A stretch of DNA of 64,000 bases from Campylobacterales bacterium (lineage in GTDB: Bacteria > Campylobacterota > Campylobacteria > Campylobacterales > UBA6016), in assembly GCA_041915365.1 (NCBI GenBank), contig JAYSBP010000012.1:843-64842 (forward strand), in the 5' to 3' direction. The translations under genes were made by a program, and so were the position numbers. Under the pieces are notes generated by a model that worked only from the letters and a program-made list of their open reading frames with translations, was not told where the DNA came from and made no database searches. Positions 5,024 to 21,746 of the stretch are shown one piece after another; within the stretch, counting starts at the first letter, position 1; the number at the start of each line of letters is the position of its first letter.

Positions 5024-5113
5024 GACAAAAAGTAACTATTTCGTAACCGACAGAATATACAATTAAAACACACAAAACACTTCAAAGATAGTGGTTTATT
5101 AGGGTACTCCAAT

Positions 5114-5975: not shown

Positions 5976-6821
5976 ATGTTGCACAAAAATAAAAGAAAAA
6001 TACTTAATACTATAGTTTTGGCGTTATCAACAGGGGCGGCTCTTCTTGGCATTGCAATACTATTTTGGATTATAGGGATACTCCTTTTCAAAGGGCTATC
6101 TGTAATATCTCTTAATACGTTTATTCAAGACGGCACACCTCCTGGAATGGAAGGTGGTGGCTTAAGGCAAGCACTAATAGGACACCTAATACTAACAAGC
6201 GTAGCGATGGGTATAGGCATACCAGTAGGTATGCTTGCCGGTACATATCTTAGCGAGTACGGCGCAGGCTCTAGGGTCGCAAACTTCATCAGGGACTTAT
6301 CGGACATTATGATGTCGGCTCCTTCTATCGTCGTAGGCGTATTCGTATATGGCATTATGGTGGCCCCCGTTCACCACTTCTCTGGCTGGGCAGGCAGCGT
6401 GGCACTTGCTATACTGGCCGTTCCCGTTATTATCAGAACGACGGACGACATGCTCCGCCTTGTTCCGCAGACACTTAGAGAGGCGGCATATGCGCTTGGC
6501 GCACCAAAATGGAAAGTGATATTTCAAGTGGTTTACAAAGGTGCGGCGGTCGGCCTAATGACGGGCATACTTCTTGGTGTTGCAAGGGTTGCTGGGGAGA
6601 CGGCTCCGCTACTATTCACATCGTTTAACAACAACTTCTTTAGTCTAAATATGAACGACTCCATGGCTTCGCTTACGGTCACGATGTTTGGCTATGCGTC
6701 AAGCCCATACGAGGATTGGCAACAACTAGGCTGGGCTGCGGCGGCGATACTTACTTTTGCAGTCTTGTTTGTGAACATACTAAGTAGAGTTATTATGAAT
6801 ATCAAAAAAGGTAAAAGGTAA
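5976..6821 (+). CDS. pstA: phosphate ABC transporter permease PstA
   Basis: 281 aa with REAAYALGAPKWKVIFQVV. Adjacent to pstC and pstB. Confidence 0.85.
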   Translation: MLHKNKRKILNTIVLALSTGAALLGIAILFWIIGILLFKGLSVISLNTFIQDGTPPGMEGGGLRQALIGHLILTSVAMGIGIPVGMLAGTYLSEYGAGSRVANFIRDLSDIMMSAPSIVVGVFVYGIMVAPVHHFSGWAGSVALAILAVPVIIRTTDDMLRLVPQTLREAAYALGAPKWKVIFQVVYKGAAVGLMTGILLGVARVAGETAPLLFTSFNNNFFSLNMNDSMASLTVTMFGYASSPYEDWQQLGWAAAAILTFAVLFVNILSRVIMNIKKGKR

Positions 6822-6824: not shown

Positions 6825-7616
6825 ATGTCAACTATAGCTAACGTAAAAGAGGCTCTTGAGCTAGAGGTAAAAAACTTCAATTTTTACTACAAAGGGACTA
6901 CTAGCCCAAGCCTAAAAAACATCAATATGCCAATAGCAAAAAACCGCATCACGGCACTTATCGGACCGTCAGGCTGTGGTAAAACTACGCTTTTGCGCTC
7001 TTTTAATAGAATTCACGACCTTTACCCTGGAAACAAATACGAGGGTGAGATACTTTTTGAAGATAGCAAAAAAAATATTCTCGATAAAGACGTAGACCTT
7101 ATCGACCTTAGACTAAAAATAGGTATGATTTTTCAAAAACCGACTCCATTTCCAATGAGTATTTTTGACAACGTAGCTTACGGCCTTAGACTACAGGGAG
7201 TCAAAAGCAAATCAGAGCTTGAGGGCAGAGTAGAAGCGGCGCTAAAAGGTGCGGCGCTATGGGAAGAGGTATCAAACAGGCTAAATGCCGATGGCAACTC
7301 GCTCTCAGGCGGACAGCAACAAAGACTTTGTATCGCAAGAGCGGTAGCGGTAGAGCCTGAAGTATTGCTATTTGACGAGCCAACGTCTGCGCTTGACCCT
7401 ATATCTACGCTAGCGGTTGAAAAGCTTATTATTGAGCTAAAAGAGAAGTTAACGGTAATCATCGTAACACACAATATGCAACAAGCGGCAAGGGTGTCGG
7501 ATTATACGGCGTTTATGTATCTTGGCGACCTAGTTGAGCTTGGACACACCGAAGAGCTATTTATCAACCCTGTAGAAAAACTAACAGAAGAGTATATTAC
7601 AGGAAAATTCGGTTGA
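6825..7616 (+). CDS. pstB: phosphate ABC transporter ATP-binding protein PstB
   Basis: Walker [10 protein letters not shown], signature [14 protein letters not shown], Walker [12 protein letters not shown], and the PstB-typical [15 protein letters not shown]. Confidence 0.9.
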
Positions 7617-7617
7617 G

Positions 7618-7640
7618 AAAAAGAGGTTTTACCTCTCTTT
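7618..7640. terminator. possible bidirectional hairpin between convergent pstB and the 101-aa gene
   Basis: AAAAAGAGGT-TTT-ACCTCTCTTT: a 6-bp GC-containing stem plus A:T extension with one mismatch, flanked by A and T runs. Confidence 0.35.
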
Positions 7641-7934
7641 CGACTCCTTTTTTATTTTGTCTTCTATATAGTTAAAAACCGTGCCACCTCTATTTAGGTA
7701 AGCAGTTTGAAGCATAAAAACCTCTTTAAATACATACAAAAACCCCAAAAATGGCACGCACCACAATACGACGATTTTTCTCATATTTGCTTTCGCTTCG
7801 TATGTGCTGACTAGATAAAAAGCCTCTGTCTCACTAATGTTTGACGCCTTATAAATCCCAAATCCGATTGTTGCAAAAATATTTAACAAAAATCCAAGCG
7901 CAATATAATTCTGGTAAATCTCGATAGCTTCCAT
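7629..7934 (-). CDS. small membrane protein, unknown function
   Basis: 101 aa with two hydrophobic helices. Its start abuts the upstream DHH gene's stop. Confidence 0.45.
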   Translation of the reverse strand: MEAIEIYQNYIALGFLLNIFATIGFGIYKASNISETEAFYLVSTYEAKANMRKIVVLWCVPFLGFLYVFKEVFMLQTAYLNRGGTVFNYIEDKIKKESKER

Positions 7935-8971
7935 TATCCCTCGATTGACGGTTTCATTATAGATTCAATAGCTTTTTTGTATTCGGCGTATGTAAAAAAT
8001 TCTTTTATGTTATTGGCTCTACCGCCTGCGGCATTGCGATGCCCGCCTCCGCCAAAAAGCGTCTTACTTATTTCACTTACATCCGCTTTGTTGCTTGAGC
8101 GCATAGATATATTCCCTTTAGGCGATACGTCGATAAAAAAATCATACTCGTCATTTGCCGACAAAAAGCCATTTGCAATAACTGAGACATTGCCGATGGA
8201 TACAGTAAGAAACCCTGTATATCCAGCATATTCAACGCTAAACTCGCCTTTTTTGGTTGAGAGCAGTTTGGTAACGTATCTGCTTGATAGATTGTCTATA
8301 GTATCGTTGCTCTCATCGCCCCTTAAAAACTCTTTTTTCAAGAAGTGTATCGCATCATCTAGCGCAATGTGAGCCTCATCTTTGCCCAAAAACTCTTTTG
8401 CCTTCTCAAGTACATAAATCTTGTAATACACACTCTCTTCCGGAAATATTAGCTTGTTTAGTTCTTTTGTCTCCGTGATTAGGCGCATAAGAGTCTTACC
8501 AAACTCAAAAAGAGGCTGGTCTTCCTTCCAAAGGTCGATAGCGTTTATTGCATCTACAAGAGTCGTAGTAGCCTCATCTAACTCACCAAAATAATCATAA
8601 GTCAGCTTTGTCCCGCATCTATTGTTATCTAGCGTATACCAATCGGAAAACTCCTTTGCTTGCTCTTCGCCGCTTATATGATGGTCTAGTAGCTGAAGCC
8701 TGATATTGTATCCGCTCGTGTTTAGCGCTCTTATCTTGTCATCCAGATATCTACAATCTTGCGTGCTTAGATTTAGGTCTGTGATAAGAAACAATATCTC
8801 TTCGCTCTTATCCTCTAGCGCCTCTATCTCGGCTGTCATTTGCTTTAGTCTTGCATTTATTTCATTTCCATAGTTGGAATTGAAAAACCGTCCGTTTGGT
8901 ATATTTTTTGACGATACATATTGACACCCGTAACCGTCTAGGTCAGTGTGTGATAAGTGAAATAGTCTCAT
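7934..8971 (-). CDS. DHH/DHHA1-family phosphoesterase
   Basis: Motifs SHTDLDGYG (DxD), LLDHHIS (DHH) and GGGGHRNAAGG (DHHA1 GGGH). Confidence 0.75.
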   Translation of the reverse strand: MRLFHLSHTDLDGYGCQYVSSKNIPNGRFFNSNYGNEINARLKQMTAEIEALEDKSEEILFLITDLNLSTQDCRYLDDKIRALNTSGYNIRLQLLDHHISGEEQAKEFSDWYTLDNNRCGTKLTYDYFGELDEATTTLVDAINAIDLWKEDQPLFEFGKTLMRLITETKELNKLIFPEESVYYKIYVLEKAKEFLGKDEAHIALDDAIHFLKKEFLRGDESNDTIDNLSSRYVTKLLSTKKGEFSVEYAGYTGFLTVSIGNVSVIANGFLSANDEYDFFIDVSPKGNISMRSSNKADVSEISKTLFGGGGHRNAAGGRANNIKEFFTYAEYKKAIESIMKPSIEG

Positions 8972-9234
8972 TATTTAGCAAACAACTCCGCATTCTCTTT
9001 TTTCATGTGCTCGATTACTTTTACTACTTCATCAACTCCCAGCATTCCCTCTTCCTCTTCGCCAAACACCTCATCGATAGCATCCAAATAGATATCTGCC
9101 GCTTCGTCAAGCTTTGCTTTTTTTACTCCGGCAAAATATAGTGTAGCCCTTAGCATCTCTTGGAGTACGGCGCTCATCTCCTCTAACGTTACGTCATCTT
9201 CATTTTGTGTCTGTTTTTGGTTGTTCTTTGCCAT
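8971..9234 (-). CDS. small acidic hypothetical protein
   Basis: 87 aa. Its stop overlaps the start of the DHH gene, suggesting coupled translation. No recognisable domain. Confidence 0.45.
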   Translation of the reverse strand: MAKNNQKQTQNEDDVTLEEMSAVLQEMLRATLYFAGVKKAKLDEAADIYLDAIDEVFGEEEEGMLGVDEVVKVIEHMKKENAELFAK

Positions 9235-9300
9235 TTTTTAACCTTTATTTGTTTGGGCTAATTTTAGCAGGGAACGGCTTACCTTGCAGCCTCGCAAAAA

Positions 9301-10299
9301 TCATTTATCTGCTATTTCGTAAAGCTTTGAGACGGCCTCATTTTCATCCTCATAATACACTTCAAAATCAAATTTTGCCGTCTTTTTGTACACCTTGTCG
9401 TAATACTCCACCAGCAGTACCTCAGCGGCGGCGGACATATCTTTTGCCTCGTAAGATGCTATCGCTTTCTCTTTTGCGACACGGGAAATGTATGGCGTTA
9501 TCTTTTCCATGCAAAAATAAAAATACTCCTCGCTTATCCTCTCATACATCCGCACAATTCTCTTCACACGCTCGCTCAAAGAGGTATCTATGCGTACCTG
9601 CAAACCCTCATCCATCATCTCATACAGACGGTGCGGGAGCATCACGGAGCCTATGCGTACACTCTCCCCCTCTATAAAAACAGGTCGTGAACGGTCTATG
9701 GATAGCAAGGCAGCGACAAGGCGGTTTTGAAACTCTTTTTGGCTCGGTTGTGAGCCGTTGACCGCCCCAAAAACAGAACCGTAATGGTTTGCCATCCCCT
9801 CTAAATCTATCACGTTGTCAAGCGCTTTTAATATGTCGCTTTTACCACATCCCGTGTAGCCTCTTAGGGTTATAAAATTGATTTTTTCAAACGAGTTTAG
9901 ATACTCGACTACAAACTTTCGGTATGACTTGTAGCCGCCATCTATTTTGTCTATCCTGTATCCAATACTGGAAAAAATAGTTGCTAGCGACGATGAGCGC
10001 ATCCCGCCTCTAGCGCAGTATATGGCTATTTTTGCCTTTGGCGTATAAGCCGGATATAATGTTTTGATGTGTTTTTCGGCGTTTAGGCACACGTATCCAG
10101 CGCCCCTCACTCTCGCCTCAAAAGGGGATATTTGCTTATATATAGTCCCGACTTCTCTGTGCTCCTCATCGCTAAGCGCATATAGATTTATAGCTCCAGG
10201 CACATGAGACTCTGCGTACTCTTTTGGGCTTCTAGCATCTATGATGAGGTCGTATCCGGACAAATCACCGTTTAATTTTTCGATATTTACAACGTTCAT
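9301..10299 (-). CDS. selU: tRNA 2-selenouridine synthase (rhodanese plus P-loop)
   Basis: N-terminal rhodanese domain (IDARSPKEYAESHVPGAINL, CARGGMRS) followed by the P-loop GYTGCGKS. This is the MnmH/YbbB architecture. Confidence 0.8.
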   Translation of the reverse strand: MNVVNIEKLNGDLSGYDLIIDARSPKEYAESHVPGAINLYALSDEEHREVGTIYKQISPFEARVRGAGYVCLNAEKHIKTLYPAYTPKAKIAIYCARGGMRSSSLATIFSSIGYRIDKIDGGYKSYRKFVVEYLNSFEKINFITLRGYTGCGKSDILKALDNVIDLEGMANHYGSVFGAVNGSQPSQKEFQNRLVAALLSIDRSRPVFIEGESVRIGSVMLPHRLYEMMDEGLQVRIDTSLSERVKRIVRMYERISEEYFYFCMEKITPYISRVAKEKAIASYEAKDMSAAAEVLLVEYYDKVYKKTAKFDFEVYYEDENEAVSKLYEIADK

Positions 10300-10316
10300 G
10301 ATTTCAAGCCGCCCAG

Positions 10317-10694
10317 CTAAACTATATTATAAAGAGGGCTTAACGTCTTAACAATCGTATTGTGAACTTTTCGTATCGTATCTGTGTCTAGCTCGCCTAT
10401 TTTTTTAACAAATCTATCATGAGAGAAATTTTTAATTTGAAAGCAGTCGATTGTAGATGTTTTCGACAGTCCATTTGCGGCGCTATTTTCTAGCCTAATC
10501 ATCCACGGATAAGAGCCGTACTGCGCCGACCACTCCGTAATAGGAACGACAGTCTTTAGAGGCAGCTTTCCTATTTCATCAGCGCTCACTACCACCGCAG
10601 GTCTTTGCTTGGCTATTTCACTACCGATTTTGGGGAAGAACTCCACAAGCCAAATCTCACCTTGTCTAATATTCATAAAGGCCGCCATCATCAT
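10317..10694 (-). CDS. mazF: MazF/PemK-family type II toxin (endoribonuclease)
   Basis: RQGEIWLVEFFPKIGSEIAKQRPAVVVS is the canonical PemK/MazF N-terminal motif. It overlaps the upstream antitoxin gene. Confidence 0.8.
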   Translation of the reverse strand: MMMAAFMNIRQGEIWLVEFFPKIGSEIAKQRPAVVVSADEIGKLPLKTVVPITEWSAQYGSYPWMIRLENSAANGLSKTSTIDCFQIKNFSHDRFVKKIGELDTDTIRKVHNTIVKTLSPLYNIV

Positions 10695-10914
10695 TCCAAA
10701 TTTCTTTCATATCGGCAGTATATTTCTTATCTTTTGCGGCGGTATCGGCCGCCATCCTCCACCTCTCTAGCTCTTTTTGCTGCACATAGCTCTTTACAGC
10801 ATCATTGTATATAGTAGAGAGTGAGACTTTGAGCTCATCTTTTAGCTGCATCACCTGATTTTTTAGCTCTACAGGCATATTAAAGGTTATTTTCTCGGTG
10901 TTAGAATTGACCAT
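10666..10914 (-). CDS. cognate antitoxin (MazE-like position)
   Basis: 82 aa that overlaps the mazF start. The tail is acidic and aromatic (WNDDGGLYEY), as expected for an antitoxin that inserts into the toxin. Confidence 0.6.
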   Translation of the reverse strand: MVNSNTEKITFNMPVELKNQVMQLKDELKVSLSTIYNDAVKSYVQQKELERWRMAADTAAKDKKYTADMKEIWNDDGGLYEY

Positions 10915-10984
10915 AATAAACTCCCGTATGTTTTTGCCGTATTATAGCTAAGTATATTTGTATTTTCAAAAGAATTCCGTATCG

Positions 10985-11863
10985 CTACTTGCTTGACAGA
11001 TAAGCGTTCAAGACAGCATCTAGCTTTTCGCACAAACTATTAGGAGATATGATTTTGATATGGGGAAGCCAATATTTTACAATGTTTAGTATCTCGTCTT
11101 CGTATGATACTTTTGTGTACAGCATCAGATGTTTATCCGTATGGGATATGACAACTTGATGCGGCAAAAGCTTTCTTCTCAAAAAATATTCAGCCACCGT
11201 ATTGTCTATCTCTAGTGTAGCTTCTATTTCTGTTTGCGAAATCCAGTCTGCCCCACTCTTTTCTATAGTCTCTATAAAATCAGAGCTTGGATTGAAAGTC
11301 TTTTCAAGCACTTTCAAATCAGCCATCTTTGAAAAGCTAAAGTTTTTGAGGGTTCCGTCTTCATCTGCCACTAGATACCAAATAGCATTTTTATTGACTA
11401 GCTTGTATGGTAGCAACATTCTAGGCTTGTCTTTGTAAGTACACGCTATTTGCTTGTTTTGGAGTATGGCGACGCTAATAGCTTCAAAATCATCTTGCTT
11501 TGATGTTATGTTTTCATAACCATATTCTTTGATGAGATATACAGAGTTGATTTTTGTGTTCAAAATATCAGCTATAAAATCATCGGTAAGCGACGGATAT
11601 AGTGATTTTATGCCACTTATCGTGGCAAAGTTTTTTATATCATTGTACGTCAGCTTGCCCAGTGCGTATGACTCCAAAGAGTAGTAGCCATTTTCCTTTT
11701 TTATCGGTAGATATGAGAGTCTGTTGTTCAAGTCTCGCTGAATAGTTCTCTTATCCACGCTAAACTCTTCGCAAAGCTCATCTGCGGTAAATCTCTCACC
11801 GGAGTTGAATTTCACAAGTATCATAGCTAGTCTAGTGGCTATTGTATCATGTGATTTTTTCAT
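10985..11863 (-). CDS. HTH-WYL-WCX transcriptional regulator (BrxR/CapW/PafBC-like)
   Basis: N-terminal HTH (FTADELCEEFSVDKRTIQRDLN), a central WYL domain (NAIWYLVADEDGTLKNFSFSKM) and a C-terminal WCX-like end (ILNIVKYWLPHIKIISPNSL). Confidence 0.8.
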   Translation of the reverse strand: MKKSHDTIATRLAMILVKFNSGERFTADELCEEFSVDKRTIQRDLNNRLSYLPIKKENGYYSLESYALGKLTYNDIKNFATISGIKSLYPSLTDDFIADILNTKINSVYLIKEYGYENITSKQDDFEAISVAILQNKQIACTYKDKPRMLLPYKLVNKNAIWYLVADEDGTLKNFSFSKMADLKVLEKTFNPSSDFIETIEKSGADWISQTEIEATLEIDNTVAEYFLRRKLLPHQVVISHTDKHLMLYTKVSYEDEILNIVKYWLPHIKIISPNSLCEKLDAVLNAYLSSK

Positions 11864-11909
11864 TGTTTTGTCACGCTAGCACCATATTTAGCATGCCATA
11901 TAAAATATT

Positions 11910-13628
11910 CTAGGCAATATGTAGCTCCTTATTTGTACTCAATAGGTGCAAAAAATCATCTGTAGATTTTATTTGCAAATCTATCTGCATAAAATTAGCC
12001 ATCTCGTAAACTGACTCATTGACATCTAAATTTTTTTCAATAGCATTTTGCATATTTTCAGCTATTTTTTTAAACTGTAATTTTTGTTTAGCCAAAACCT
12101 CTAAGGATGTTTTCTCAAAAATATCAGTGTTTTCTTTGATGGCTTGTATTCTTAGCTCAAAAACTTCTTTTACTCTCATCATTCTTTTTTCAGCTTTAAC
12201 TGAAAATAAATCGGCTTGGTCTATGAGCCATACAATGACCGTAGAGGCTACTCCAGTAAGTATAATCATGATAACATCTTTTAAAAACTCAAACGGGGTT
12301 CCTGTCATAAAACCAAGTATTGATTCCTCAAAATAAGCTCCGAGAAAAGTTATGGCGGTTGTTGCCAGTAATTTTGTAATAGCGTCAGCTTTTTGCAGTG
12401 GTGTTATTTTGTCTTCCATCAAAATGTTCACAGCTCCAACAATAGCCGAGAAGCCTTGTGTAATAACTTGTAAAATTTTTTTAACTAATCCAATAAAAGC
12501 ATTTACTATCCCATTTATTATCATAATTACAAAACTTTGTAAAAAATCTTTTATACTGTCAAATAGAGTTCCGACTGCACTCTTCAAAATATAATCCTTA
12601 ACTCTTTTGATTCTTAGCGTAAAAGCTTCAATTTTGTCACTAATATCAAATCCATACAAAATACCATTTTTAAAAATATCACTAAACTCATAATACAGCG
12701 GCTTAATAATTAAAATTATTACTTCGCCCATGGCCTTATCTTTGCTACTATCAATAGTCTGCTTACCAGCGTCATTTACAAGTTTACTTTCGCCTTGTAG
12801 CACATTTCCAACATCACTTACTAAATTTTCTCCAACCTTTTGATTTAATTCTTTTTCAACAATTTTTGTTGCTTCTTTTTCTTTTTCAACCATTGTTTGC
12901 TTGGTTGCCTCATTTTGTTGATTAGATATTGTATTTTTTCCATCACTTACAGCTTCGATATTTGTCTTCCCGCCTTTGCTTTGGTTGAGGCTCCCATTCG
13001 TAACTGCTAAATTTGAATCCTTATTGAGTATTTCTTTAAAATCTTTGTCATCTAAAAACTTTGATGTGCCATATTCTTTAACGGCATGTACCAAAGGTAC
13101 AATATGATCTGGCTGTGGTCGATTAGTTGCAACATCATTCCCTGTGTACTCGTCTTTGCCACCATTTTTTAGATGCTCTTCCTTATATTTCTCCATTGCT
13201 TGTTTGTTTTCAACTTTGGATCGGGGAATTTTTCTATCTTTGATTGTGTTTTTTTCAGTGTCATTCAGGTCAGCCTTATCTTGTCTTTCATCTCGTTTTG
13301 AGCTGTGAACTTCTTCATAGCTAAAACTTTTAATTTCATCTACTAGCCTAGAGGCCGTTATGCCAGTTTTTGCCAATCCCAGCTTCGGATGTTTTACAAG
13401 TCCATCCGCAATATTAAAAAATACAGGAGTCACCAACTCGTCTACTACATCTTGCTTGCTTTCAAACTCTTCATAAATCTGATTTAACACTTCAAGCGAC
13501 GACTGTTGGTCATACAACTCATACTCTATAAGTTTTTTACTCATTTTTAATGGCGATGTGTTGTTGAGGTCATTTAGCATTTCATCAAAAGAAAGTTCTT
13601 TGATTTTATATTTTTCATTATTACTCAT
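11910..13628 (-). CDS. HNH nuclease (Cas9/McrA-type core) fused to a C-terminal multi-helix membrane domain and coiled coil
   Basis: Residues about 171-222 (PQPDHIVPLVHAVKEYGTSKFLDDKDFKEILNKDSNLAVTNGSLNQSKGGK) align with the HNH core D-H-I-V-P...N...N-x-x-K-G. Residues about 300-470 contain four long hydrophobic segments, for example FVIMIINGIVNAFIGLV and VIMIILTGVASTVIVWLI. Confidence 0.6.
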   Translation of the reverse strand: MSNNEKYKIKELSFDEMLNDLNNTSPLKMSKKLIEYELYDQQSSLEVLNQIYEEFESKQDVVDELVTPVFFNIADGLVKHPKLGLAKTGITASRLVDEIKSFSYEEVHSSKRDERQDKADLNDTEKNTIKDRKIPRSKVENKQAMEKYKEEHLKNGGKDEYTGNDVATNRPQPDHIVPLVHAVKEYGTSKFLDDKDFKEILNKDSNLAVTNGSLNQSKGGKTNIEAVSDGKNTISNQQNEATKQTMVEKEKEATKIVEKELNQKVGENLVSDVGNVLQGESKLVNDAGKQTIDSSKDKAMGEVIILIIKPLYYEFSDIFKNGILYGFDISDKIEAFTLRIKRVKDYILKSAVGTLFDSIKDFLQSFVIMIINGIVNAFIGLVKKILQVITQGFSAIVGAVNILMEDKITPLQKADAITKLLATTAITFLGAYFEESILGFMTGTPFEFLKDVIMIILTGVASTVIVWLIDQADLFSVKAEKRMMRVKEVFELRIQAIKENTDIFEKTSLEVLAKQKLQFKKIAENMQNAIEKNLDVNESVYEMANFMQIDLQIKSTDDFLHLLSTNKELHIA

Positions 13629-13640
13629 TGCATATTATCC

Positions 13641-14579
13641 TCATGCGGCTAGTAGTTGTGCATTGCCAACTAAATCTTTGATGTTATTGACAGTTTCCAA
13701 ATCCTCTTTTTTGAACTCTCCCTCATCGGTCAAGTATCCCATCGTAGCCATTTGTTTTAGTACAATTGACAGGTTAAATAGCGCTTGAAACTCTTCAATG
13801 TGTGCTATCGGCATAAGTTTAAAATCTAGTTTTCCATCAACTAGCTCTATGCCTTTTAGTAGATTTTTTTGAGTTTGCGATTTGATGCCATATTCAAATC
13901 TTGAAAGAAGTTTTTCGTAGTTACAAATAAGTACCGAGAAATACTCTTCAACACTTTCAATAGATTTTATTGTTGCTGTCATTTTTACTATTTGAGATTT
14001 CATTTTCTGCATTTCTTCGTTTACTCTAATCTGCTCTTCTTTAACCATACAAAGACTTTCAGAGGCTAGCTTCCTAGTGGAAAAGCCCAAAGTTAAAATA
14101 CCAAATGCTATTGTTGAAAAGCCCAAATTATTAAAATCTATACTGAATACTTCTTTTTTCCCTCTAACTCCAGATGTGGTTTTAATATCAAGTATGGAGC
14201 TATCAAAATACTCTAAAAAATTTTCTCCATCGATGGTGAGATTATGAAGATGTTTTGCAAGATTTATAAATCTGGCAAAATGATTTTGGTAAATATCAGT
14301 TTTGTGATAATTTATTGAACTAATTATTATTTCTATTTTTTTAGAAGCAGCGTCTACTTCTTCTTCATAAGTCTTTTTTGAATCGTTGTATTTTTGCTCC
14401 ATCGACTCATATAGCCTTTCAGCTTCATCAAAATCTATCCTGCCAGTAAAACCATTCCAGCATTTTGCACCACCAGTTACAACATAATCGACACCATCAG
14501 ACACTTTATCTGCAATAAAACTTACACTATCCACAACACAATCAAGGAGACCACCTATATCAAAACCAAGCATATCCAA
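13641..14579 (-). CDS. coiled-coil protein with a central hydrophobic hairpin, unknown function
   Basis: 312 aa. TTG at 14579, or ATG at 14573 with an AAGGA RBS. Long heptad-like helices surround a hydrophobic stretch FSTIAFGILTLGF. The gap to the next gene is 12 nt. Confidence 0.5.
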   Translation of the reverse strand: MDMLGFDIGGLLDCVVDSVSFIADKVSDGVDYVVTGGAKCWNGFTGRIDFDEAERLYESMEQKYNDSKKTYEEEVDAASKKIEIIISSINYHKTDIYQNHFARFINLAKHLHNLTIDGENFLEYFDSSILDIKTTSGVRGKKEVFSIDFNNLGFSTIAFGILTLGFSTRKLASESLCMVKEEQIRVNEEMQKMKSQIVKMTATIKSIESVEEYFSVLICNYEKLLSRFEYGIKSQTQKNLLKGIELVDGKLDFKLMPIAHIEEFQALFNLSIVLKQMATMGYLTDEGEFKKEDLETVNNIKDLVGNAQLLAA

Positions 14580-14584
14580 TCCTT

Positions 14585-14983
14585 TTATTTTATAAGCTCA
14601 TAGCCATATTGTACGATTTTGTTCATAGCCTGAACCCACTTGTATATATTGCCAAATTCAAGCTCTTGAATATCAAACTCTTTGGCTAAATCTTTTATAA
14701 ATTTTTGCTCATTGTCACAGAATTTATTATCAGCCAATAAAATACCCAACAATTCAATCAGCACAATTTTTTTTACTCTTTGTGGCGAGCTTCTCAGATT
14801 ATTTATTACTGTTTTAATATCTTTTTGTTTGGATATCTTATAATCAAGCAATTGACACTCATACGTATAACTATCAAATACATCCTGTTCTTCTTGCGTA
14901 TGTATTCCATCCACCCCTATCGCATAAAATGCCAACTCTAAGAAATCTGTTTGTTCTTGTTTTGATAGCATATTTAAATACAT
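14585..14983 (-). CDS. TerB-like domain protein
   Basis: 132 aa with two helical repeats showing the TerB/DjlA-N pattern: LELAFYAIGVDGIHTQEEQDVF and LLGILLADNKFCDNEQKFIKDLAKEF. A perfect AAGGAGG RBS sits inside the 3' end of the upstream gene. Confidence 0.5.
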   Translation of the reverse strand: MYLNMLSKQEQTDFLELAFYAIGVDGIHTQEEQDVFDSYTYECQLLDYKISKQKDIKTVINNLRSSPQRVKKIVLIELLGILLADNKFCDNEQKFIKDLAKEFDIQELEFGNIYKWVQAMNKIVQYGYELIK

Positions 14984-15531
14984 TTTACCTCCTTGTAGTT
15001 TGTCTCTTTTCTGCCGTCAAGCTTTCCATCTTCGCCATAAATGTACTCTATTTTTTTGGCTATCTCATCAGCCTCATCATATTCATACTCAAAAGAAATT
15101 TCTCCGCCAAGTCCATACTCAATACCTCTAGCAAGCCTGTCATCTTCATACTCCATTGCATATCTCAAGACACCGCCACTATATGTTTGTGTGGAGGATT
15201 TTCTTCCAAATTCATCATAAGAGACTTGCGTCACTTCACCGCTGTGCTTGTCGGTAATTTTCACTATTTTACAGTATCCAAATTGTTGCACAAAATGCTC
15301 ATTCTCGCAAATATTTTCTTTGCAATTAGCTACTTCGTTGCTTGTATTTAGTAGATTATCTAACTTTAAATACTTAATAGCACACTGCAACTGTTGGATT
15401 TTATTGTTAAAACTTACTTCTATTCGAGCATTTGAATTTTCAATTGCTTCCAAAATCTTTTTGAGTCCCCAAACAATAATGACTAAAATAATTACCAATA
15501 GAATTGTCACAACATCAAAACCCATTTTCAC
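14974..15531 (-). CDS. N-terminally membrane-anchored protein with YD/RHS-like short repeats
   Basis: TM helix VVTILLVIILVIIVWGL, then a coiled segment, then repeats VSYDEFGRKSSTQTY / EYEDDRLARGIEY / EYEYDEADEIAKKIEY / YIYGEDGKL resembling Y-x-Y-D-x-x-G-R. GTG at 15531. ATG at 15525 sits behind a GGGGGGAG RBS and is the likelier start. Confidence 0.5.
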   Translation of the reverse strand: MKMGFDVVTILLVIILVIIVWGLKKILEAIENSNARIEVSFNNKIQQLQCAIKYLKLDNLLNTSNEVANCKENICENEHFVQQFGYCKIVKITDKHSGEVTQVSYDEFGRKSSTQTYSGGVLRYAMEYEDDRLARGIEYGLGGEISFEYEYDEADEIAKKIEYIYGEDGKLDGRKETNYKEVKCI

Positions 15532-15598
15532 TCCCCCCTTTTCTTCATATTTAAAATTAACATTCTTGCACCCTACATCTTAAACATTTTTTACATTA

Positions 15599-15787
15599 TC
15601 AACAAAAGTAAATTTTGCCACCAAAAATATTACAAAATATATCACCATCAACGCTCTCATCGGCACAGGGGCAACCACAAAAATCATAATCAACACAACG
15701 GCGGAAAGGGTTTTGTTGATTATTTCCCATGCAAATCCCGCCACATACACCAAATGTAAAGATGAATGTTTCGATTAAAAGTATCAT
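15599..15787 (-). CDS. small cysteine-rich peptide with a hydrophobic N-terminus
   Basis: 62 aa with 8 Cys, including CGGIC and CGCPC. It starts 2 nt after the upstream gene's stop and exactly fills the inter-gene space. Confidence 0.4.
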   Translation of the reverse strand: MILLIETFIFTFGVCGGICMGNNQQNPFRRCVDYDFCGCPCADESVDGDIFCNIFGGKIYFC

Positions 15788-15789
15788 CG

Positions 15790-16320
15790 CTATTCTCTTG
15801 TGTTTGTCAGCATATTTAGCTTTCGAAAAGTAATATTTGCCATCTTACTAATGCTTATACCGTCGAGTGTCAAAGCTACTTGACAGGCTTCATGCATAGC
15901 GTTGTCCAACTCTCTCATCTGCACTGCTTTTTCAATATCCTCATCACTGAGCTGTTCCATATCATCTACTCCACAAAATACGCTCTCCAGTTCGCCAAGC
16001 AGTTTATATTGGGATTCTTGCGCCAATGTAAGTATCTGACAAAATTCATTTAGCTTTTCATTGTTTTCTGTGGTATCTAGGATATCTGGCTTGCCTTTTA
16101 TGTCGTCTGCATGCAATCGTGGTGTTGATTGCAGGTTTTTTATTGACCTATATAGCCACCCCGTCTCTTGAAAAAGTGTATTATGCAGCTCTTCTTTGAT
16201 TTTGTTAATATCATCAAGTGCCGTATCAGACTCATAAATATCATCATGCTCAAAGTATTTTTTAACTCCATACCCAGTTGCCGCCAACGCAACTCCACCC
16301 AATACAAATGGCAACATCAC
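15790..16320 (-). CDS. N-terminally membrane-anchored acidic helical protein, unknown function
   Basis: 176 aa. Glycine-rich TM helix LPFVLGGVALAATGYGV, then an acidic helical region. AAGGAG RBS upstream. GTG at 16320 or ATG at 16317. Confidence 0.5.
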   Translation of the reverse strand: MMLPFVLGGVALAATGYGVKKYFEHDDIYESDTALDDINKIKEELHNTLFQETGWLYRSIKNLQSTPRLHADDIKGKPDILDTTENNEKLNEFCQILTLAQESQYKLLGELESVFCGVDDMEQLSDEDIEKAVQMRELDNAMHEACQVALTLDGISISKMANITFRKLNMLTNTRE

Positions 16321-16440
16321 AATCTCCTTTTTATAATTTCAGCGTGAAGTTTAGCGGGACTAGGTGACAGGTGGCGTCGTATGAAAAAATAAAAAGTAGA
16401 TTATTTATGTTGGGTATTTTGTGAGGCTATAGTGGAAAAG

Positions 16441-16899
16441 CTAGTACTTTGCCACGGCTTCCCCACCGTCCCTCTCCCAAAAAAACTCAACCCACTCATT
16501 CGTCAAATGCAGATAATAATCAGCCTTGATAACGGCGCTTTGTCTCTGAAATAGTGTTGCTGTTTTGAACTCCACTTTCGGATATGCGGCTTTTAGTTTT
16601 TCTACGACAACTTTTAGCGTCTCTCCAGTATCGACTATCTCGTCGGCTACTATTATCTTGCTAGCTCCCGCAAGACTTGGAAGCTCATCCACCACAGGAG
16701 TGCCGAGCTTTTTTTGCCCTTCATAGGAGTAGGTATTGATGGCGTACATCTTGCGAATACCTGTATTCATAGCCAAAAAATGCGCCAGCGTAGCCCCACC
16801 CCTAGCGATAAATACTATCCCATCAGCCCCAAAATCAGACAACTTACCGGCCAACACTTTTGCATCAGCCGCAAACTCCTCATATCCATATTCCCTCAT
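16441..16899 (-). CDS. gpt: purine phosphoribosyltransferase (xanthine/guanine type)
   Basis: PRPP-binding loop KIIVADEIVDTGETL. The ORF runs to 16941, but MREYGYEEF at 16899 avoids overlap with the divergent gene. Confidence 0.7.
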   Translation of the reverse strand: MREYGYEEFAADAKVLAGKLSDFGADGIVFIARGGATLAHFLAMNTGIRKMYAINTYSYEGQKKLGTPVVDELPSLAGASKIIVADEIVDTGETLKVVVEKLKAAYPKVEFKTATLFQRQSAVIKADYYLHLTNEWVEFFWERDGGEAVAKY

Positions 16900-16928
16900 C
16901 GTTAGTCCCTTTTTGGTAAAATGCTTAT

Positions 16929-17801
16929 GTGATAATAACAAAAGAACAAAAAGCCATCCTTTATATGTTTACTGCGACGCTGCTTTTCGCCGTCGTTGCG
17001 CTAATTGCAAAGCTCATCTCCCACCTTGGGGCATTGGAGCTTACGTTTTTTAGAAATTCTGTCGGGATACTGTTTTTGCTAATGTTTTTTGGCTACGCAA
17101 AACAAAAAAAATTCAACGCCGAAAAAATATGGCTTTTACTGTTTCGTGGATTTATCGGAACGGTTGCGTTAATTGCGTTTTTTTACAATGTCTCCGCCGT
17201 GAGCCTGTCAGATGCGCTAACGTTTGCAAAGGCTGAGCCGCTATTTAGCGCAATACTCGCCTTTTGGCTTATGTCGGAGAAACTTGATTTTATCAAAGTA
17301 TCGGCTATCCTTATCGGTTTTTTCGGTATTGCCGTGATAGGGTTTGACAGAGGTATGCACATGGCCTACGCCAATGCCGTAGGCGTATTTGCAGGATTTT
17401 GCTCGGCTCTTGCGTACACTACGATACGACGCATAAGAGATGATTTTGACCATAGATTTGTCGTTCTATCTTTTATGGGATTTGGGACAATTTTGCCTCT
17501 TGTGCTTATGTCGTTTTCAGAGTTTACGGGCGATGGCGAGATTATCAGGGGTTTTGTAGCGCCAAAGGGCGGCGAGATATGGATGCTCCTCATGATAGGG
17601 CTGCTCTCCGCACTCGGTCAAGTATTGATGACAAAAGCGTATTTTTACGCCAAGGCCGGAATAGTGAGCACCGTTAGCTATTTTAGTATATTTTTTGGCG
17701 TGATATTTGGCCTTTTAGCCGGAGACGCACTGCCTAGCCTCACGGTATTTACAGGGATGGGGCTTATAGTAATTTCTGGGATTTTGATAGCGAAAAAATA
17801 G
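16929..17801 (+). CDS. EamA/DMT-family transporter
   Basis: 290 aa with about 10 hydrophobic helices in two EamA-like halves. Confidence 0.7.
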   Translation: MIITKEQKAILYMFTATLLFAVVALIAKLISHLGALELTFFRNSVGILFLLMFFGYAKQKKFNAEKIWLLLFRGFIGTVALIAFFYNVSAVSLSDALTFAKAEPLFSAILAFWLMSEKLDFIKVSAILIGFFGIAVIGFDRGMHMAYANAVGVFAGFCSALAYTTIRRIRDDFDHRFVVLSFMGFGTILPLVLMSFSEFTGDGEIIRGFVAPKGGEIWMLLMIGLLSALGQVLMTKAYFYAKAGIVSTVSYFSIFFGVIFGLLAGDALPSLTVFTGMGLIVISGILIAKK

Positions 17802-19025
17802 ATGAAAAAAGTTTATTTCAAGACATTCGGTTGTCGTACGAATACATTTGACACGCAGACGATGATAGAACATATCGGCGACTATGAACTGGCAAAAGAC
17901 GAGTCCGAGGCTAACGTAGTAGTGGTCAATTCATGTACGGTTACAAACGGTGCAGACACGGGAGTGAGGCAATATATATCCAAAATAAAAAGCAAAAATC
18001 CAGAAATAAAAGTGCTATTCACAGGGTGCGGGATACAAACCGAGGGTAAAAAGCTATTTGACTCCGGCAAGGTAGACGTGGTATTCGGCCACTCGCAAAA
18101 AGCAGAGATAACATCTTTTTTTGAGGAGCCAAAAAAGCTTTTTTCACAAGGTGACAAAAACTATGTTGACGACACAGTAGTTGCGAATTTTGAGGGAAAA
18201 ACAAAGGCGTTTATCAAGATACAAGAGGGGTGTGATTTTGCTTGCAGTTACTGCATCATTCCATCTGTCAGGGGATACAGCAGAGCCATCCCTGCCCGTA
18301 CGGTCATTCGTCAGATAGAGCTTTTGGCAGATAGCGGTTTTAGCGAGTTTATCCTTACAGGTACGAATGTCGGCAGCTACCGAGACAACGAAACAAGCCT
18401 TGAAAAACTGATAAAAAGCATCATAGGTTTGGGGCTTGCGAAAAGAGTTAGGCTAGGAAGCGTAGAGCCGTCCCAAATCACGGACGAGTTTTTGGAGGTC
18501 GTATCACACGAAAATTTCTCCAAACAGCTTCATATCGCTATTCAGCACAGCTCAAACGCAATGCTTGAAAAAATGAACAGAAAAAATCGTTTTGAAGATG
18601 ACTTGAGATTATTTGAAAAGCTCTCAAAACTGGGCTTTGCGCTGGGTACGGACTATATAGTCGGCTTTCCTGGGGAGTCTGAGGCAATATGGGAAGAAGC
18701 AGTGCAAAATATCGAAGCGTTGCCGCTGACGCATATTCATCCATTTATCTACTCAAAGCGTGACGGCACGGCGGCGGCCGATATGAAAATAGACGTAAAC
18801 GGAAACGTCTCAAAAGATAGATTGCACCAAATAAACGAGATAGTGCATCGCAAAAACTACGAGTTTAGAAAAAATTTGAAAATGCCTCTGCTCGTCCACG
18901 TCGAAGACTCAAAGCTTGGTGGATTTGACCAGTTTTTTAACAAGGTGACATTTGACAAGCCGCAGCAAGACGAATGGGTAAAAGTAGAAAAGTACACGGT
19001 ACTGCCGGAAAAGACGATTGGATAA
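17802..19025 (+). CDS. mtaB: radical-SAM tRNA methylthiotransferase (MtaB-like)
   Basis: N-terminal FKTFGCRTNTFDT (UPF0004 domain), the radical-SAM cluster motif CDFACSYC, and a C-terminal TRAM-like end. Confidence 0.8.
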   Translation: MKKVYFKTFGCRTNTFDTQTMIEHIGDYELAKDESEANVVVVNSCTVTNGADTGVRQYISKIKSKNPEIKVLFTGCGIQTEGKKLFDSGKVDVVFGHSQKAEITSFFEEPKKLFSQGDKNYVDDTVVANFEGKTKAFIKIQEGCDFACSYCIIPSVRGYSRAIPARTVIRQIELLADSGFSEFILTGTNVGSYRDNETSLEKLIKSIIGLGLAKRVRLGSVEPSQITDEFLEVVSHENFSKQLHIAIQHSSNAMLEKMNRKNRFEDDLRLFEKLSKLGFALGTDYIVGFPGESEAIWEEAVQNIEALPLTHIHPFIYSKRDGTAAADMKIDVNGNVSKDRLHQINEIVHRKNYEFRKNLKMPLLVHVEDSKLGGFDQFFNKVTFDKPQQDEWVKVEKYTVLPEKTIG

Positions 19026-19028
19026 AAA

Positions 19029-19202
19029 ATGCAAAAAATTAACTGCATAAAATGCAAACATTTCTTTGTGACATACGAGCCGACAAGACCTTACGGCTGT
19101 AAGGCATACGGCTTTAAGAGCCAGCAGATGCCAAGCCTAGTCGTGTTCCAAAGTAGCGGTATGCAATGCGAAATATTTGAGCAAAAGGTAGTAAAAAAAT
19201 GA
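19029..19202 (+). CDS. small CxxC protein (57 aa), below the ORF-track cutoff
   Basis: Manual translation gives MQKINCIKCKHFFVTYEPTRPYGCKAYGFKSQQMPSLVVFQSSGMQCEIFEQKVVKK*. The ATG lies 3 nt after the mtaB stop. Its TGA overlaps the mltA ATG (ATGA). Confidence 0.5.
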   Translation: MQKINCIKCKHFFVTYEPTRPYGCKAYGFKSQQMPSLVVFQSSGMQCEIFEQKVVKK

Positions 19203-20419
19203 GAATTTTTATTTTTGGATTATTGGCCGCTTTGATGCTGGGGTGCGCCCCAAAAGTAGAGCAGGCGACACAAACTGCGCCAGCCGTAAAAGTAGTGGAA
19301 AAACAAAAGATACCGCCGCTTGCAAAATCAAGTAAACATCCGTCTCAAATAGTAAAAACACTACCTACAAAAGAGTTTTTCAAAGCCCTAGACTACTCCA
19401 TAGAGTACTATGAGAGATCATCAATAAAAAACAATATTTTTGACTTTTTGGACCAAAACTATACGGCGTCTCAAATGGCAGATTCGCTAAGGCTATTCAA
19501 AGAGATAGCCAAGCTTCCGAGGGAAAAATTTTTGGAAAGACTTGATAATGAATTTACCGTATATGAGAGTAAAAATGAAAATAACGGTTCGCTAATAACC
19601 GGCTATTATGCACCGGTACTTAGGGGCTCTTTTACAAAAACAGAAAAGTATAACGCCCCACTCTACCCACTCCCAAAAGATTTGGTTGTAGCAAAACTAA
19701 AAAAATTTCCGACGGCAAAATCTGTGCGAAATATTGCAGGTAAAGTCGAAAATAGCGAGCTCGTCCCGTACTACACCAGAGAAGAGATAATGAACGGAGC
19801 GTTAAAAGAAAAACCACTTCTTTATCTAGATAACGAAATGGACGCTTTCTTGCTCGAAGTGCAAGGCTCTGGGATAGTAGACATCAATGGAACAAAGCAC
19901 TACATAGGATATGCAGGCAAAAATGGGCATCCATACACATCGATTGGCAAGATAGTCTACGAGGAAAAATTACTAGACTCATCCAAAATAAATATGCAAA
20001 CCATAAAGGAACTTCTAGACTCCAATGAGACATTGAGAGACCACGTGCTAAGTAAAAATAAAAGTTTTGTCTTCTTCAAACTCAATACAAAACAAGGGGT
20101 ATTTGGAAATATAACTGTGCCTCTTACCGCCAAAGAGAGCGTGGCTATGGATAGCGAACTGCTCCCGAGAGGTGCGCTAGCATACATAAAAACGGTAGTT
20201 CCAAAAAAATTAAACGGTCTTGCCGTAGTTCCAAGAAGTGAACGAGAGCCGTTTGAGAAGTTTTTTATGGTGCAAGACACCGGTGGAGCTATAAGGGGCG
20301 GAGGACGTGTGGATATATACTTTGGAGAGGGCGAAGAGGCACTTTTTTATGCTGGGCAGACAGCCTCCAAAGGTGAAATTTATTTGCTTGTTGCAAAAAA
20401 GGAGAAATTAGCAAAATGA
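19199..20419 (+). CDS. mltA: membrane-bound lytic murein transglycosylase A (lipoprotein)
   Basis: Lipobox LMLGC. MltA-specific region (GYYAPVLRGS..., LEVQGSG) and a 3D domain (VQDTGGAIRGGGRVDIYFG). Confidence 0.8.
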   Translation: MRIFIFGLLAALMLGCAPKVEQATQTAPAVKVVEKQKIPPLAKSSKHPSQIVKTLPTKEFFKALDYSIEYYERSSIKNNIFDFLDQNYTASQMADSLRLFKEIAKLPREKFLERLDNEFTVYESKNENNGSLITGYYAPVLRGSFTKTEKYNAPLYPLPKDLVVAKLKKFPTAKSVRNIAGKVENSELVPYYTREEIMNGALKEKPLLYLDNEMDAFLLEVQGSGIVDINGTKHYIGYAGKNGHPYTSIGKIVYEEKLLDSSKINMQTIKELLDSNETLRDHVLSKNKSFVFFKLNTKQGVFGNITVPLTAKESVAMDSELLPRGALAYIKTVVPKKLNGLAVVPRSEREPFEKFFMVQDTGGAIRGGGRVDIYFGEGEEALFYAGQTASKGEIYLLVAKKEKLAK

Positions 20420-21180
20420 AAAGCATCATATTTTCCATATTGGCGATATTTTTGTTTGCCGGATGTGCGGTAAACGAACAGCCAAAAAATTGTTTTGACA
20501 AGAGTAGATTGGAGCAAAAAGAATACGACTCGCTCAAAAACGCAAACGCATCGCTAGCCACATTCAAAACAGAGTACGCTGAAATGTCGTCATATATTAA
20601 TTTTTTGAACTCATATACGGCGGAATACTCAAAATATATTAGTGCGGCATCTACGGCATCTATCGTAATCAAATATATGCCGATTCCATACGCAGGGCAA
20701 ATATCATCATCTGCAGCATTTGGGGCAAAAATGACGGCGCTTGCTAGTGCGGCATCAAAATCAGTCTCAAAGCTAAATACATCGTCAATAGAGTTTGATA
20801 TGAGGCTAACTGCATACGAAGTAAGCAAAAACCCGCAAAAACTTCAAGAAGCTCGCAAATACGCATCAACCGTGCTTCAAAACGACCTTGAAGAGGCAAA
20901 ACAAAGCCTCATTAGACTAAAAGACGGTGCAGCGGGGCTTATGGCCGTTAGCATGGCAATATCTCAATACTGCAATTCAGGTGATCAGCTATTATCAAAG
21001 GCTACCTCTTTGTTTTCAAGCAAATCAGACACGGACAAGCGAGCCCAAATAGATAATACTATGAAATCTAAAACGGAAAGTTTTGATAAGAGAATGACGA
21101 AAGTAACTACAAGCTTCGAGAGCACAAAGGGGTATATAAAAAACGCAGATACCTATGGGGCCTTAAGCGACGAGCTCTAA
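20416..21180 (+). CDS. lipoprotein, unknown function
   Basis: Signal peptide plus lipobox (LFAGC). Ala/Ser-rich helical protein. Its start overlaps the mltA stop. Confidence 0.5.
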   Translation: MKSIIFSILAIFLFAGCAVNEQPKNCFDKSRLEQKEYDSLKNANASLATFKTEYAEMSSYINFLNSYTAEYSKYISAASTASIVIKYMPIPYAGQISSSAAFGAKMTALASAASKSVSKLNTSSIEFDMRLTAYEVSKNPQKLQEARKYASTVLQNDLEEAKQSLIRLKDGAAGLMAVSMAISQYCNSGDQLLSKATSLFSSKSDTDKRAQIDNTMKSKTESFDKRMTKVTTSFESTKGYIKNADTYGALSDEL

Positions 21181-21746
21181 GCTTTTACTCTTGATTCTAT
21201 AGCACGAGCAAGCGATACGGTGTCGATATTTTCAAATGCGACGCCAGTCGGCACGCCGTGCGCTATTTTTGTAAATGTAGCACCGTATTTTGAGAGCCTA
21301 TCCTCAAGGTATACTATAAGGCCGTCGCTCTCAACGGAAGGGGTAAAAGCAAATATTACCTCCTCTACTCCGCTTTTTACGCACTCTTCTAGCCTGTCGA
21401 CAAGCACTGCTCTCATCTCTTCAAAGACAAAGTATCTGCCGTCATATCCGCCGCTAAGCTCCAAAGAAAAAATATCTTTTGCGCTTGAGACTATACACAG
21501 TCTTTTTTCGTCCCTCTCTTCGTCGGCACAGATGTGACATATCTCGTCTTCCGTGATATTGCCGCACACTTCGCATTTTTGAACGCTTCGCACAGCCTCT
21601 TCGACGAGATGAGACAGCTTCACGGCCTTGAAGTTGTCCTCAAACAATAGATGATATGCTATCTTAAAGGCGCTCTTTCTCCCTACAGTAGGGAGTGCGG
21701 CAAACAAATCCACAAGCTCCGCAAATTTCGTGCTAGACTTTTTCAT
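21177..21746 (-). CDS. recR: recombination protein RecR
   Basis: HhH N-terminus ([16 protein letters not shown]), a C4 zinc finger ([16 protein letters not shown]) and a Toprim region. Confidence 0.85.

Follow-up and report, generated by a model that had tools for sequence, protein, structure and literature searches.

A 64,000-nucleotide stretch of a Campylobacterales genome (contig JAYSBP010000012.1, positions 843 to 64,842), hereafter the window, carries at positions 10,985 to 16,320 an array of minus-strand genes in which a unit of four, g3-g4-g5-g6, keeps its order across four phyla. We give slightly better than an even chance to the reading that this unit is the conserved part of a WYL-regulated, inner-membrane-associated anti-phage or anti-mobile-DNA system acquired by horizontal transfer. 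The unit encodes, in transcription order, an N-terminally anchored YD-like repeat protein (g3, 14974-15531, 185 amino acids (aa)), a TerB-like protein (g4, 14585-14983, 132 aa), a helical hairpin with a hydrophobic tip (g5, 13641-14579, 310 or 312 aa depending on the start), and a protein combining an HNH motif, hydrophobic helices and a C-terminal tail (g6, 11910-13628, 572 aa). The array ends with a regulator of helix-turn-helix (HTH)-WYL-WCX architecture (g7, 10985-11863, 292 aa). The cassette is probably distantly related to Dionysus, the DinA/DinB/DinC anti-jumbo-phage system of P. aeruginosa (bioRxiv 10.1101/2025.09.30.679545), and probably works like it, with an HNH nuclease on a DinA-like scaffold and an extra repeat protein. 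It is therefore plausibly an HNH-bearing form of the TerB/membrane (Dionysus-type) kind and not a categorically new one.

The synteny of the core was established on 43 loci obtained by a pattern scan, with one genome per species. These loci belong to Campylobacterota, Gammaproteobacteria, Bacteroidota and Firmicutes, and their distribution is patchy. All their open reading frames (ORFs) were searched with the seven window proteins, and the counts given here refer to the 39 loci whose upstream sequence reaches 2.5 kb or more. Of these 39, 35 have g5 directly upstream of g6, 34 have g4 directly upstream of g5, and 26 show a detectable g3 homologue immediately before g4. Elsewhere the g3 position is held by a larger gene, of 312-1076 aa, whose product in several cases has the C-terminal domain of g3. 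Core genes are separated by a few bases; in Shewanella, for instance, the gaps are 11, 3 and 9 nt. The same five-gene array, a WYL gene followed by genes for proteins of 961, 134, 306 and 548 aa, is found on a megaplasmid of C. butyricum. Since g3-g6 are syntenic, and the two upstream ORFs, g1 and a small ORF, are not conserved, the unit is g3-g4-g5-g6, often accompanied by a WYL gene. A sequence-only reading of the window had proposed a six-gene operon with a WYL regulator as a defence candidate. Context and database links support the defence reading, and the co-occurrence of the homologues is borne out by a gene set syntenic across four phyla; the gene set was too broad, the four-gene core standing, with g1 and the small ORF outside it. 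Two-gene variants, formed by a g6-like protein and a helical partner and devoid of TerB, are found in Bacteroidales, in Paenibacillus, and on Cronobacter and E. coli plasmids. In Shewanella phaeophyticola (L027), two ORFs (10001-10765 and 10954-11925) share the g6 homologue, through a frameshift or as a pseudogene, next to a g3-g5 set that looks intact; the nuclease gene may be decaying in this lineage.

The g6 protein is the proposed effector and scaffold. It possesses a conserved N-terminal helical domain (residues ~1-110), the HNH motif, four to five hydrophobic helices (298-313, 361-404, 415-434 and 443-472), and a coiled coil with a conserved tail (476-572); the membrane domain of roughly four helices and the Cas9-type HNH motif were both anticipated from the sequence and are recovered here. 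The motif, D174-H175 ... N206 ... N215 .. K218, is invariant in a 21-sequence alignment, and its five residues are kept in 49 of 52 family members, the three exceptions carrying another N-terminal module on the same membrane-plus-tail chassis. Judging from these alignments, the HNH catalytic residues are under selection. Matches to Pfam families in the HNH region, examined in 26 members, stay below threshold: GmrSD_C in 6/26 (best 5e-6), HNH_4 in 4/26 (best 1.6e-3) and HNH in 2/26. A profile search of PDB sequences with this region ranks the Cas9 HNH domain first (E=0.86), and phmmer and profile searches of the same sequences with g6 found nothing. In the AlphaFold2 (AF2) model, residues 130-270 are the only confident part, with a predicted local distance difference test score (pLDDT) of 72-90, and show strands 171-175 and 207-211 followed by a helix 212-218. 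The closest relative of g6, at 70% identity, is encoded by Sulfurospirillum sp. UBA4058. Close homologues number 119, in Campylobacterota, Vibrio, Shewanella, Idiomarina and Firmicutes, and an exhaustive profile search gathers 1,339 family representatives at E<=1e-3, with 257 at E<=1e-30. In the proteins P0420, P0421 and P0460 the HNH half is replaced by other N-terminal modules, e.g., a long coiled coil in P0460. Because this half is replaced in some members of the g6 superfamily, the effector or sensor domain appears to be swappable.

The g5 protein harbors the hydrophobic hairpin that had been read from its sequence, found here at residues 151-168 (NLGFSTIAFGILTLGFST), and ends with a highly conserved C-terminal motif (HIEEFQALFNLSIVLKQMA). 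Its likely start is the ATG at 14573, where the database protein also begins; a Shine-Dalgarno (SD)-like AAGGA precedes this ATG, two codons downstream of a TTG, with a spacing better suited to the ATG. The AF2 model (pLDDT 66, predicted TM-score 0.53) shows long helices, 47-108 and 168-241, around the low-confidence hydrophobic tip, and in this model g5 looks like an α-pore-former. It resembles the ClyA/Hbl/Nhe-type toxins in being predicted as a long helical hairpin whose tip carries a short hydrophobic element, although Foldseek finds no significant match of g5 to these toxins in the PDB: the best PDB structures are generic coiled coils (SMC arm, dynein stalk, Tc-toxin channel) at E>=0.03. 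Against BFVD, Foldseek likewise returned nothing significant, only generic coiled coils, and the profile search of PDB sequences retrieved only an adhesin coiled coil (E=0.06). The best structural match in BFVD is A0A5C2IFQ2, an unnamed viral protein of 336 aa (E=6e-3, probability 1.00, TM 0.39), which could be a phage-encoded look-alike of g5, as judged from the model, or a chance match.

The homologues of g5 number 132, many of them automatically named "DNA repair protein", and those of g5 and g6 alike are widely labelled "DNA repair protein" or "ATPase involved in DNA repair". Generic coiled-coil matches probably explain this public name for g5. As no ATPase or repair domain is detected, the repair names are almost certainly a coiled-coil artefact.

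The TerB assignment of g4, made earlier from its sequence, holds at the level of the family: 23 of 26 members match PF05099 (best 2.9e-7), and the window protein falls just below the cutoff (E=6e-5, 23.7 bits versus 24.4). No hydrophobic segment is found in g4, which is proposed to act as an amphitropic sensor or adaptor. TerB is classically tied to tellurite and stress loci, and the cassette might be a Ter-type module for envelope, metal or membrane stress, in which the TerB-like and helical membrane proteins would stabilise or repair the membrane and the HNH would be incidental or regulatory; such a function would agree with the apolipoprotein-like amphipathic helices of g3 relatives and with a Cronobacter plasmid on which a two-gene variant adjoins a TerD/VWA/TerY-C/PP2C cluster. 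We consider it very unlikely. Library scans find no TerC, TerD, TerZ or TelA in the cassette, the distribution is patchy, horizontally transferred and of low GC, the nuclease catalytic residues are strictly conserved, and WYL regulation and defence-type neighbours are present. Moreover, three validated defence systems, Shango, Bunzi and Dionysus, already employ TerB (bioRxiv 10.1101/2025.09.30.679545).

The first 31 residues of g3 form a hydrophobic segment, taken as an N-terminal membrane anchor, and its C-terminal part is a domain of YD/MORN-like β-hairpin repeats. Lys-Lys follows the N-terminal anchors of both g1 and g3, which suggests by the positive-inside rule that the bodies of these proteins face the cytoplasm. 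The YD-like repeats proposed for g3 are retrieved as one Pfam RHS_repeat match (E=2e-4), accompanied by TIGR YD_repeat_2x (E=3.5e-3) and by a Y.YD..G repeat pattern in the family consensus. The window protein is a short version of a family ranging from 185 to 1076 aa, in which the anchor and the C-terminal domain are set apart by a variable region of apolipoprotein-like amphipathic helices; Apolipoprotein is matched by 8 of 25 members and RHS_repeat reached by 2. The RHS/YD repeat match, the HNH, which is a common toxin domain, and a Cys-rich small ORF noted in the sequence-only reading could together evoke an Rhs/YD polymorphic toxin or a Cys-peptide toxin-immunity locus for inter-bacterial competition. 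This is hardly credible and largely refuted by the architecture: g3, with a single repeat in its 185 residues and RHS_repeat so rare in its family, is much too small to form an Rhs shell; the neighbourhood holds no gene for a secretion system, PAAR or VgrG, and the proteins have no signal peptide or variable C-terminal toxin tip; and the HNH precedes the membrane helices in the sequence and shows conservation instead of polymorphism. The Cys-rich ORF is itself probably a wrong-frame call (see below), and the Cys-peptide toxin loses its basis with it.

The g7 protein displays the HTH-WYL-WCX architecture that had been assigned to it (Pfam WYL 1.6e-9, HTH_11 3.8e-5, WCX 1.2e-4) and matches the PADLOC WYL model at 2e-34. 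WYL regulators of the BrxR/CapW type control defence islands. Like them, g7 stands beside a candidate defence operon, although it comes last in the array instead of lying divergently upstream. Orthologues of g7 (phmmer) adjoin the core in seven loci, downstream in L001, L002 and L004 and upstream in L007, L008, L014 and L015, and WYL/WCX genes identified by Pfam or annotation also adjoin it in Vibrio, Ruminococcaceae and C. butyricum loci. It is likely that g7 is a repressor or sensor controlling the cassette; no operator-like repeat was identified.

The genomic context is that of mobile and defence genes. The GC content of g3-g6 is 0.30-0.35, against 0.44-0.45 in the flanking core genes, and this low value, the patchy presence across four phyla and the strict synteny support a horizontal acquisition of the cassette. 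Integrase, DUF932, Rad52, DUF2958 and YagK/YfjJ genes precede the cassette in Sulfurospirillum sp. UBA4058 and in Arcobacter iocasae; downstream of it, the first of these genomes carries Mrr and a DUF87 ATPase. The Shewanella cassette adjoins an integrase and a resolvase, a NACHT gene lies 5 kb from that of one Ruminococcaceae genome, toxin-antitoxin genes are among the neighbours of cassette relatives, and relatives are present on plasmids. No g6 relatives were found in phage records or viral contigs. In Arcobacter iocasae (L052), the region directly downstream (12824-21722) encodes a second WYL-WCX protein, DUF6765, then a Wadjet-like MksE/DUF3584/DUF7281 set, so that, going by its gene content, this integrase element carries a defence island made of several systems. 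On Cronobacter dublinensis plasmid pA137-2 (L057), a two-gene variant (3029-5252) encodes a 177-aa protein and a 559-aa g6-like protein next to the VWA/TerD/VWA/TerY-C/PP2C cluster (7219-11237); two different Ter-associated conflict modules thus stand side by side.

This mobile context also bears on the idea that the cassette serves its mobile element, as an exclusion or competition module against plasmids, integrative and conjugative elements or transforming DNA, or as an addiction module. Its relatives are cargo of integrative islands and plasmids, and a membrane-tethered nuclease would be well placed against conjugative or transforming DNA in the naturally competent Campylobacterota. However, no mobile element is recognisable around the window copy, and Dionysus, although assayed by conjugation for anti-plasmid activity, is reported to give only anti-phage protection (bioRxiv 10.1101/2025.09.30.679545). 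We see this alternative as distinctly unlikely, and its distinction from defence is partly semantic.

Among the models of known and candidate defence systems, g6 matches the PADLOC candidate PDC-M40B (E=8e-20, 69 bits), a match of partial coverage restricted to the HNH and membrane region (residues 115-484). PADLOC PDC-x entries are unpublished and unvalidated candidates (PMC11811056). PDC-M40B proper, a 550-aa protein of Paenibacillus that scores 7.6e-79, lacks the N-terminal domain and the C-terminal tail of g6, and proteins of this type belong to two-gene units with a different partner of ~200 aa and neither TerB nor g3. No window protein matches the PDC-M40A model at E<=1, and g4 weakly matches PDC-M10B (E=0.0026). 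A TerB-like protein in a defence operon is a feature common to the cassette, Bunzi and Shango; in Shango, however, the TerB protein SngA is associated with a helicase and an ATPase, and neither a helicase/ATPase domain nor a match to a Sng model is detected in the seven proteins. PADLOC finds no match to Shango or Bunzi models among the window proteins, nor to Zorya (ZorA/ZorB) or Kiwa (KwaA/KwaB). A 623-aa Firmicutes protein at the g3 position weakly matches the ZorA coiled coil (3.8e-5). NCBIfam and PHROGs gave nothing useful for g1-g6. In the literature, we found no paper mentioning PDC-M40, PDC-M09 or PDC-M10, and no description of an operon combining TerB with a membrane HNH protein.

Dionysus is the closest validated analogue. 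Its DinA is a 557-aa membrane protein with a "MAEBL-like" region, encoded first; DinB is TerB-like; and DinC, of ~340 aa, is α-pore-former-like, its fold having been assigned by the authors to the ClyA/Hbl/Nhe-type α-pore-forming toxins and its partner being predicted as the DinA C-terminus (bioRxiv 10.1101/2025.09.30.679545). The system blocks phiKZ-type jumbo phages at the early-infection-vesicle stage, the cell is not killed, and the host membrane is not permeabilised (bioRxiv 10.1101/2025.09.30.679545). In the Dionysus loci that we analysed, the order is WYL-WCX, DinA (557-588 aa), DinB (190-211 aa), DinC (342 aa) and a small CxxCxxCC protein. The WYL-WCX regulator adjoins all three loci (L049, L055 and L056), and the CxxCxxCC protein (PF03692) comes directly after dinC in each (7078-7374, 6034-6366 and 6086-6379, respectively). 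As the main text of the preprint describes three genes only, Dionysus may have more conserved components.

The cassette and Dionysus share a common logic: a WYL regulator, a membrane protein of ~560 aa, a TerB-like protein, and a helical membrane-inserting protein of ~310-340 aa. Both are cargo of DUF932-type islands, and the TerB-like g4, encoded directly before g5, recalls DinB, encoded directly before DinC. Profile comparisons extend this likeness to the sequences. In hhalign of family against family, the matches are co-linear and at equivalent positions: the g4 family aligns with the DinB family over the C-terminal TerB half (E=9.6e-5, probability 58%), the g5 family with the DinC family over the C-terminus (E=1.9e-3, probability 14%), and the g6 family with the DinA family end-to-end over the C-terminal tail of ~90 residues (E=4.2e-3, probability 8%). 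When ~4,100 ORFs are scanned with a hidden Markov model (HMM) of the g6 tail, the DinA proteins are the top non-family matches (E=0.005 and 0.16-0.28); in the DinC-HMM scan of the ~4,100 ORFs, g5 family members dominate the top ranks. DinC matches PADLOC PDC-M09A (E=8e-25), which 20 of 24 members of the g5 family also match weakly (best 6e-4). Pairwise BLASTP of g5 against DinC is not significant (E=0.07), nor are the other direct comparisons of window proteins with Dionysus proteins, apart from that of the g7 regulator with the WYL protein of a Dionysus locus (E=1.7e-7, 22% identity).

The two systems also differ. The g6 protein carries an HNH, whereas DinA displays no detectable nuclease motif or Pfam match, and their N-terminal halves are unrelated. 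The N-anchored repeat protein g3 is extra in the cassette, while the CxxCxxCC protein conserved in the Dionysus loci is absent from it. DinB is longer than g4 (190-211 versus 132 aa), and DinC possesses a long Gly/Ala-rich hydrophobic core, whereas the tip of g5 is just 18 residues long. Reports of Dionysus concern Gamma- and Betaproteobacteria; the g3-g6 family spans four phyla. The functional analogy is clear; a distant common ancestry of the three-protein membrane module is probable on these profile matches, although unproven, and g5 is probably a DinC analogue or remote homologue. The sequence-only reading had mapped the gene set to no named system. This no longer stands in full, given the links to PDC-M40B and to PDC-M09A/DinC and the Dionysus-like logic. 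The same links suggest that PDC-M40, PDC-M09 and Dionysus could be branches of one modular superfamily.

Several observations weigh against a Dionysus-related defence system. The similarities to Dionysus are individually weak (hhalign probabilities of 8-58%, HMM scores of 10-20 bits), the g5 of the window does not itself match PDC-M09A, the gene order differs, with the DinA-like gene last here and first in Dionysus, and the homology of the cassette to Dionysus is not statistically secure. As to the nuclease, Pfam and NCBIfam give no above-threshold HNH in g6, so that the call rests on the motif and the sub-threshold matches. The AF2 models of g6 and g5 are mediocre (overall pLDDT 62 and 66, respectively), and Foldseek finds no significant structural neighbour of either in the PDB. 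The WYL gene is absent from many loci, and the defence-island evidence comes from a handful of loci and not from a statistical enrichment. Finally, neither an integrase nor a tRNA nor att repeats lie close to the cassette of the window; no tRNA genes occur in the window, and a repeat search gave no convincing flanking repeats.

An envelope sensor licensing a membrane-tethered nuclease, as put forward in the sequence-only reading, is a reasonable model for the cassette, and the comparison with Dionysus allows it to be detailed. The WYL protein would keep the operon repressed or tuned. The g6 protein would be held in the membrane by its four to five hydrophobic helices, with the Cas9-type HNH nuclease on its soluble N-terminal half, and g5, through its α-pore-former-like hairpin, would pair with g6 at its C-terminal tail, in the way that DinC is predicted to do with the DinA C-terminus. 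The TerB-like g4, together with g3, would sense a membrane-proximal infection cue, for instance DNA entry or a phage-made membrane compartment. Upon activation, g5 and g6 would remodel or breach the membrane, and the tethered HNH would cut the incoming DNA there. Complex formation, the trigger, the nuclease target and the survival of the cell are what we infer in this scheme.

A more specific version of this model is a compartment-breaching nuclease immunity, in which a TerB-gated, pore-former-like complex would bring the HNH to the site of phage DNA entry or to the phage vesicle, open the barrier and cut the DNA. We hold this version to be possible but unlikely. Were it true, a family of ~1,300 representatives in four phyla would be a general answer to genome-shielding phages, and Dionysus would be a nuclease-less branch relying on host nucleases.

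The same proteins could instead act by abortive infection, with g5 and g6 permeabilising the host inner membrane and/or the HNH degrading host and phage DNA indiscriminately, with death or growth arrest of the infected cell as the outcome. Many abortive-infection systems use membrane effectors. An α-pore-former-like g5, a g6 with four to five hydrophobic helices and a non-specific-looking Cas9-type HNH, tight WYL control, and an adjacent toxin-antitoxin pair would all fit a toxic effector. The sequence does not distinguish self-killing from targeted action, and Dionysus spares the host membrane, its cells surviving (bioRxiv 10.1101/2025.09.30.679545); we regard abortive infection as unlikely on the whole, at about the same level as the compartment-breaching version.

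If functional, the WYL-regulated membrane cassette would add a widespread, cross-phylum family to the few membrane-associated defence systems, such as Zorya, Kiwa and Dionysus. Its pairing of a Cas9-type HNH nuclease within a membrane protein, a pore-former-like partner and a TerB protein is unusual, and makes testable both the role of TerB domains in immunity and the access of the cell to membrane-protected phage DNA. A superfamily view of PDC-M40, PDC-M09 and Dionysus would also aid annotation tools, for a family publicly misnamed "DNA repair protein".

Upstream of the core, g1 (15790-16320, minus strand) encodes an acidic protein of 176 aa (pI 4.59) with an N-terminal anchor. Its homology is limited to the first ~27-42 residues and to three Campylobacterota loci (L001, L004 and L008), and the genes between g1 and g3 vary from locus to locus. 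By this distribution, g1 is a lineage-specific accessory gene outside the conserved core, which may be co-transcribed with the cassette. A common Gly/Ala-rich motif, P.[VI][LI]G..A.A..G.YG.KK, is observed in g1 (residues 1-25), in DinC (1-25) and in the pA137-2 protein encoded at 3029-3562 of L057 (1-30). All four g1-type proteins are among the weak DinC-HMM matches, and from these sequences g1 could be a truncated DinC-like paralogue.

Between g1 and g3, the sequence-only reading had placed a 62-aa peptide with eight Cys (g2, 15599-15787, minus strand). This doubtful ORF overlaps, in another frame, a very hydrophobic ORF of 57 aa (15580-15753, minus strand). The codon-usage log-odds are 0.13 bits/codon for g2 and 0.39 for the 57-aa ORF, compared to 0.34-0.39 for g1, g3 and g4, and an independent gene call on the identical contig (L054) took the frame of the 57-aa ORF and not that of g2. 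Neither has a homologue in the 43 loci. On poor codon usage, the lack of an SD site and of homologues, and the independent call, g2 was rejected as a real component and is probably a wrong-frame call; the 57-aa ORF appears to be the likelier gene, its own status being uncertain. The idea that g2 could be what is left of a gene of 243-246 aa, which occupies this place in L001 and L002, was also rejected, as tblastn shows no similarity.

Re-examination of the ORF list recovers all seven minus-strand ORFs at the coordinates given here, and their gaps of 2, 67, -10, 5, 12 and 46 nt are reproduced. The SD sites described earlier are present before g1 (AAAGGAG), g3 (AAAAGGGGGGA), g4 (AAGGAGG), g5 and g6 (GAGGA); none precedes g2 or g7. 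Promoter and terminator counts in the window equal the shuffled expectation. The array does lie, as had been noted, between a SelU-like gene with a MazF/CcdA-like pair and a phosphoribosyltransferase gene. The latter flank continues with an EamA transporter and a MiaB-like radical-SAM enzyme, and the opposite one comprises the SelU-like rhodanese/P-loop protein, a MazF/PemK toxin (125 aa, MazF Pfam 3e-25) and a CcdA-like antitoxin (82 aa). The two toxin-antitoxin genes overlap (10317-10914, minus strand) and stand 70 nt from the WYL gene. Since their GC (0.40-0.41) is intermediate between those of the cassette and of the core genes, they may share the acquired island of the cassette.

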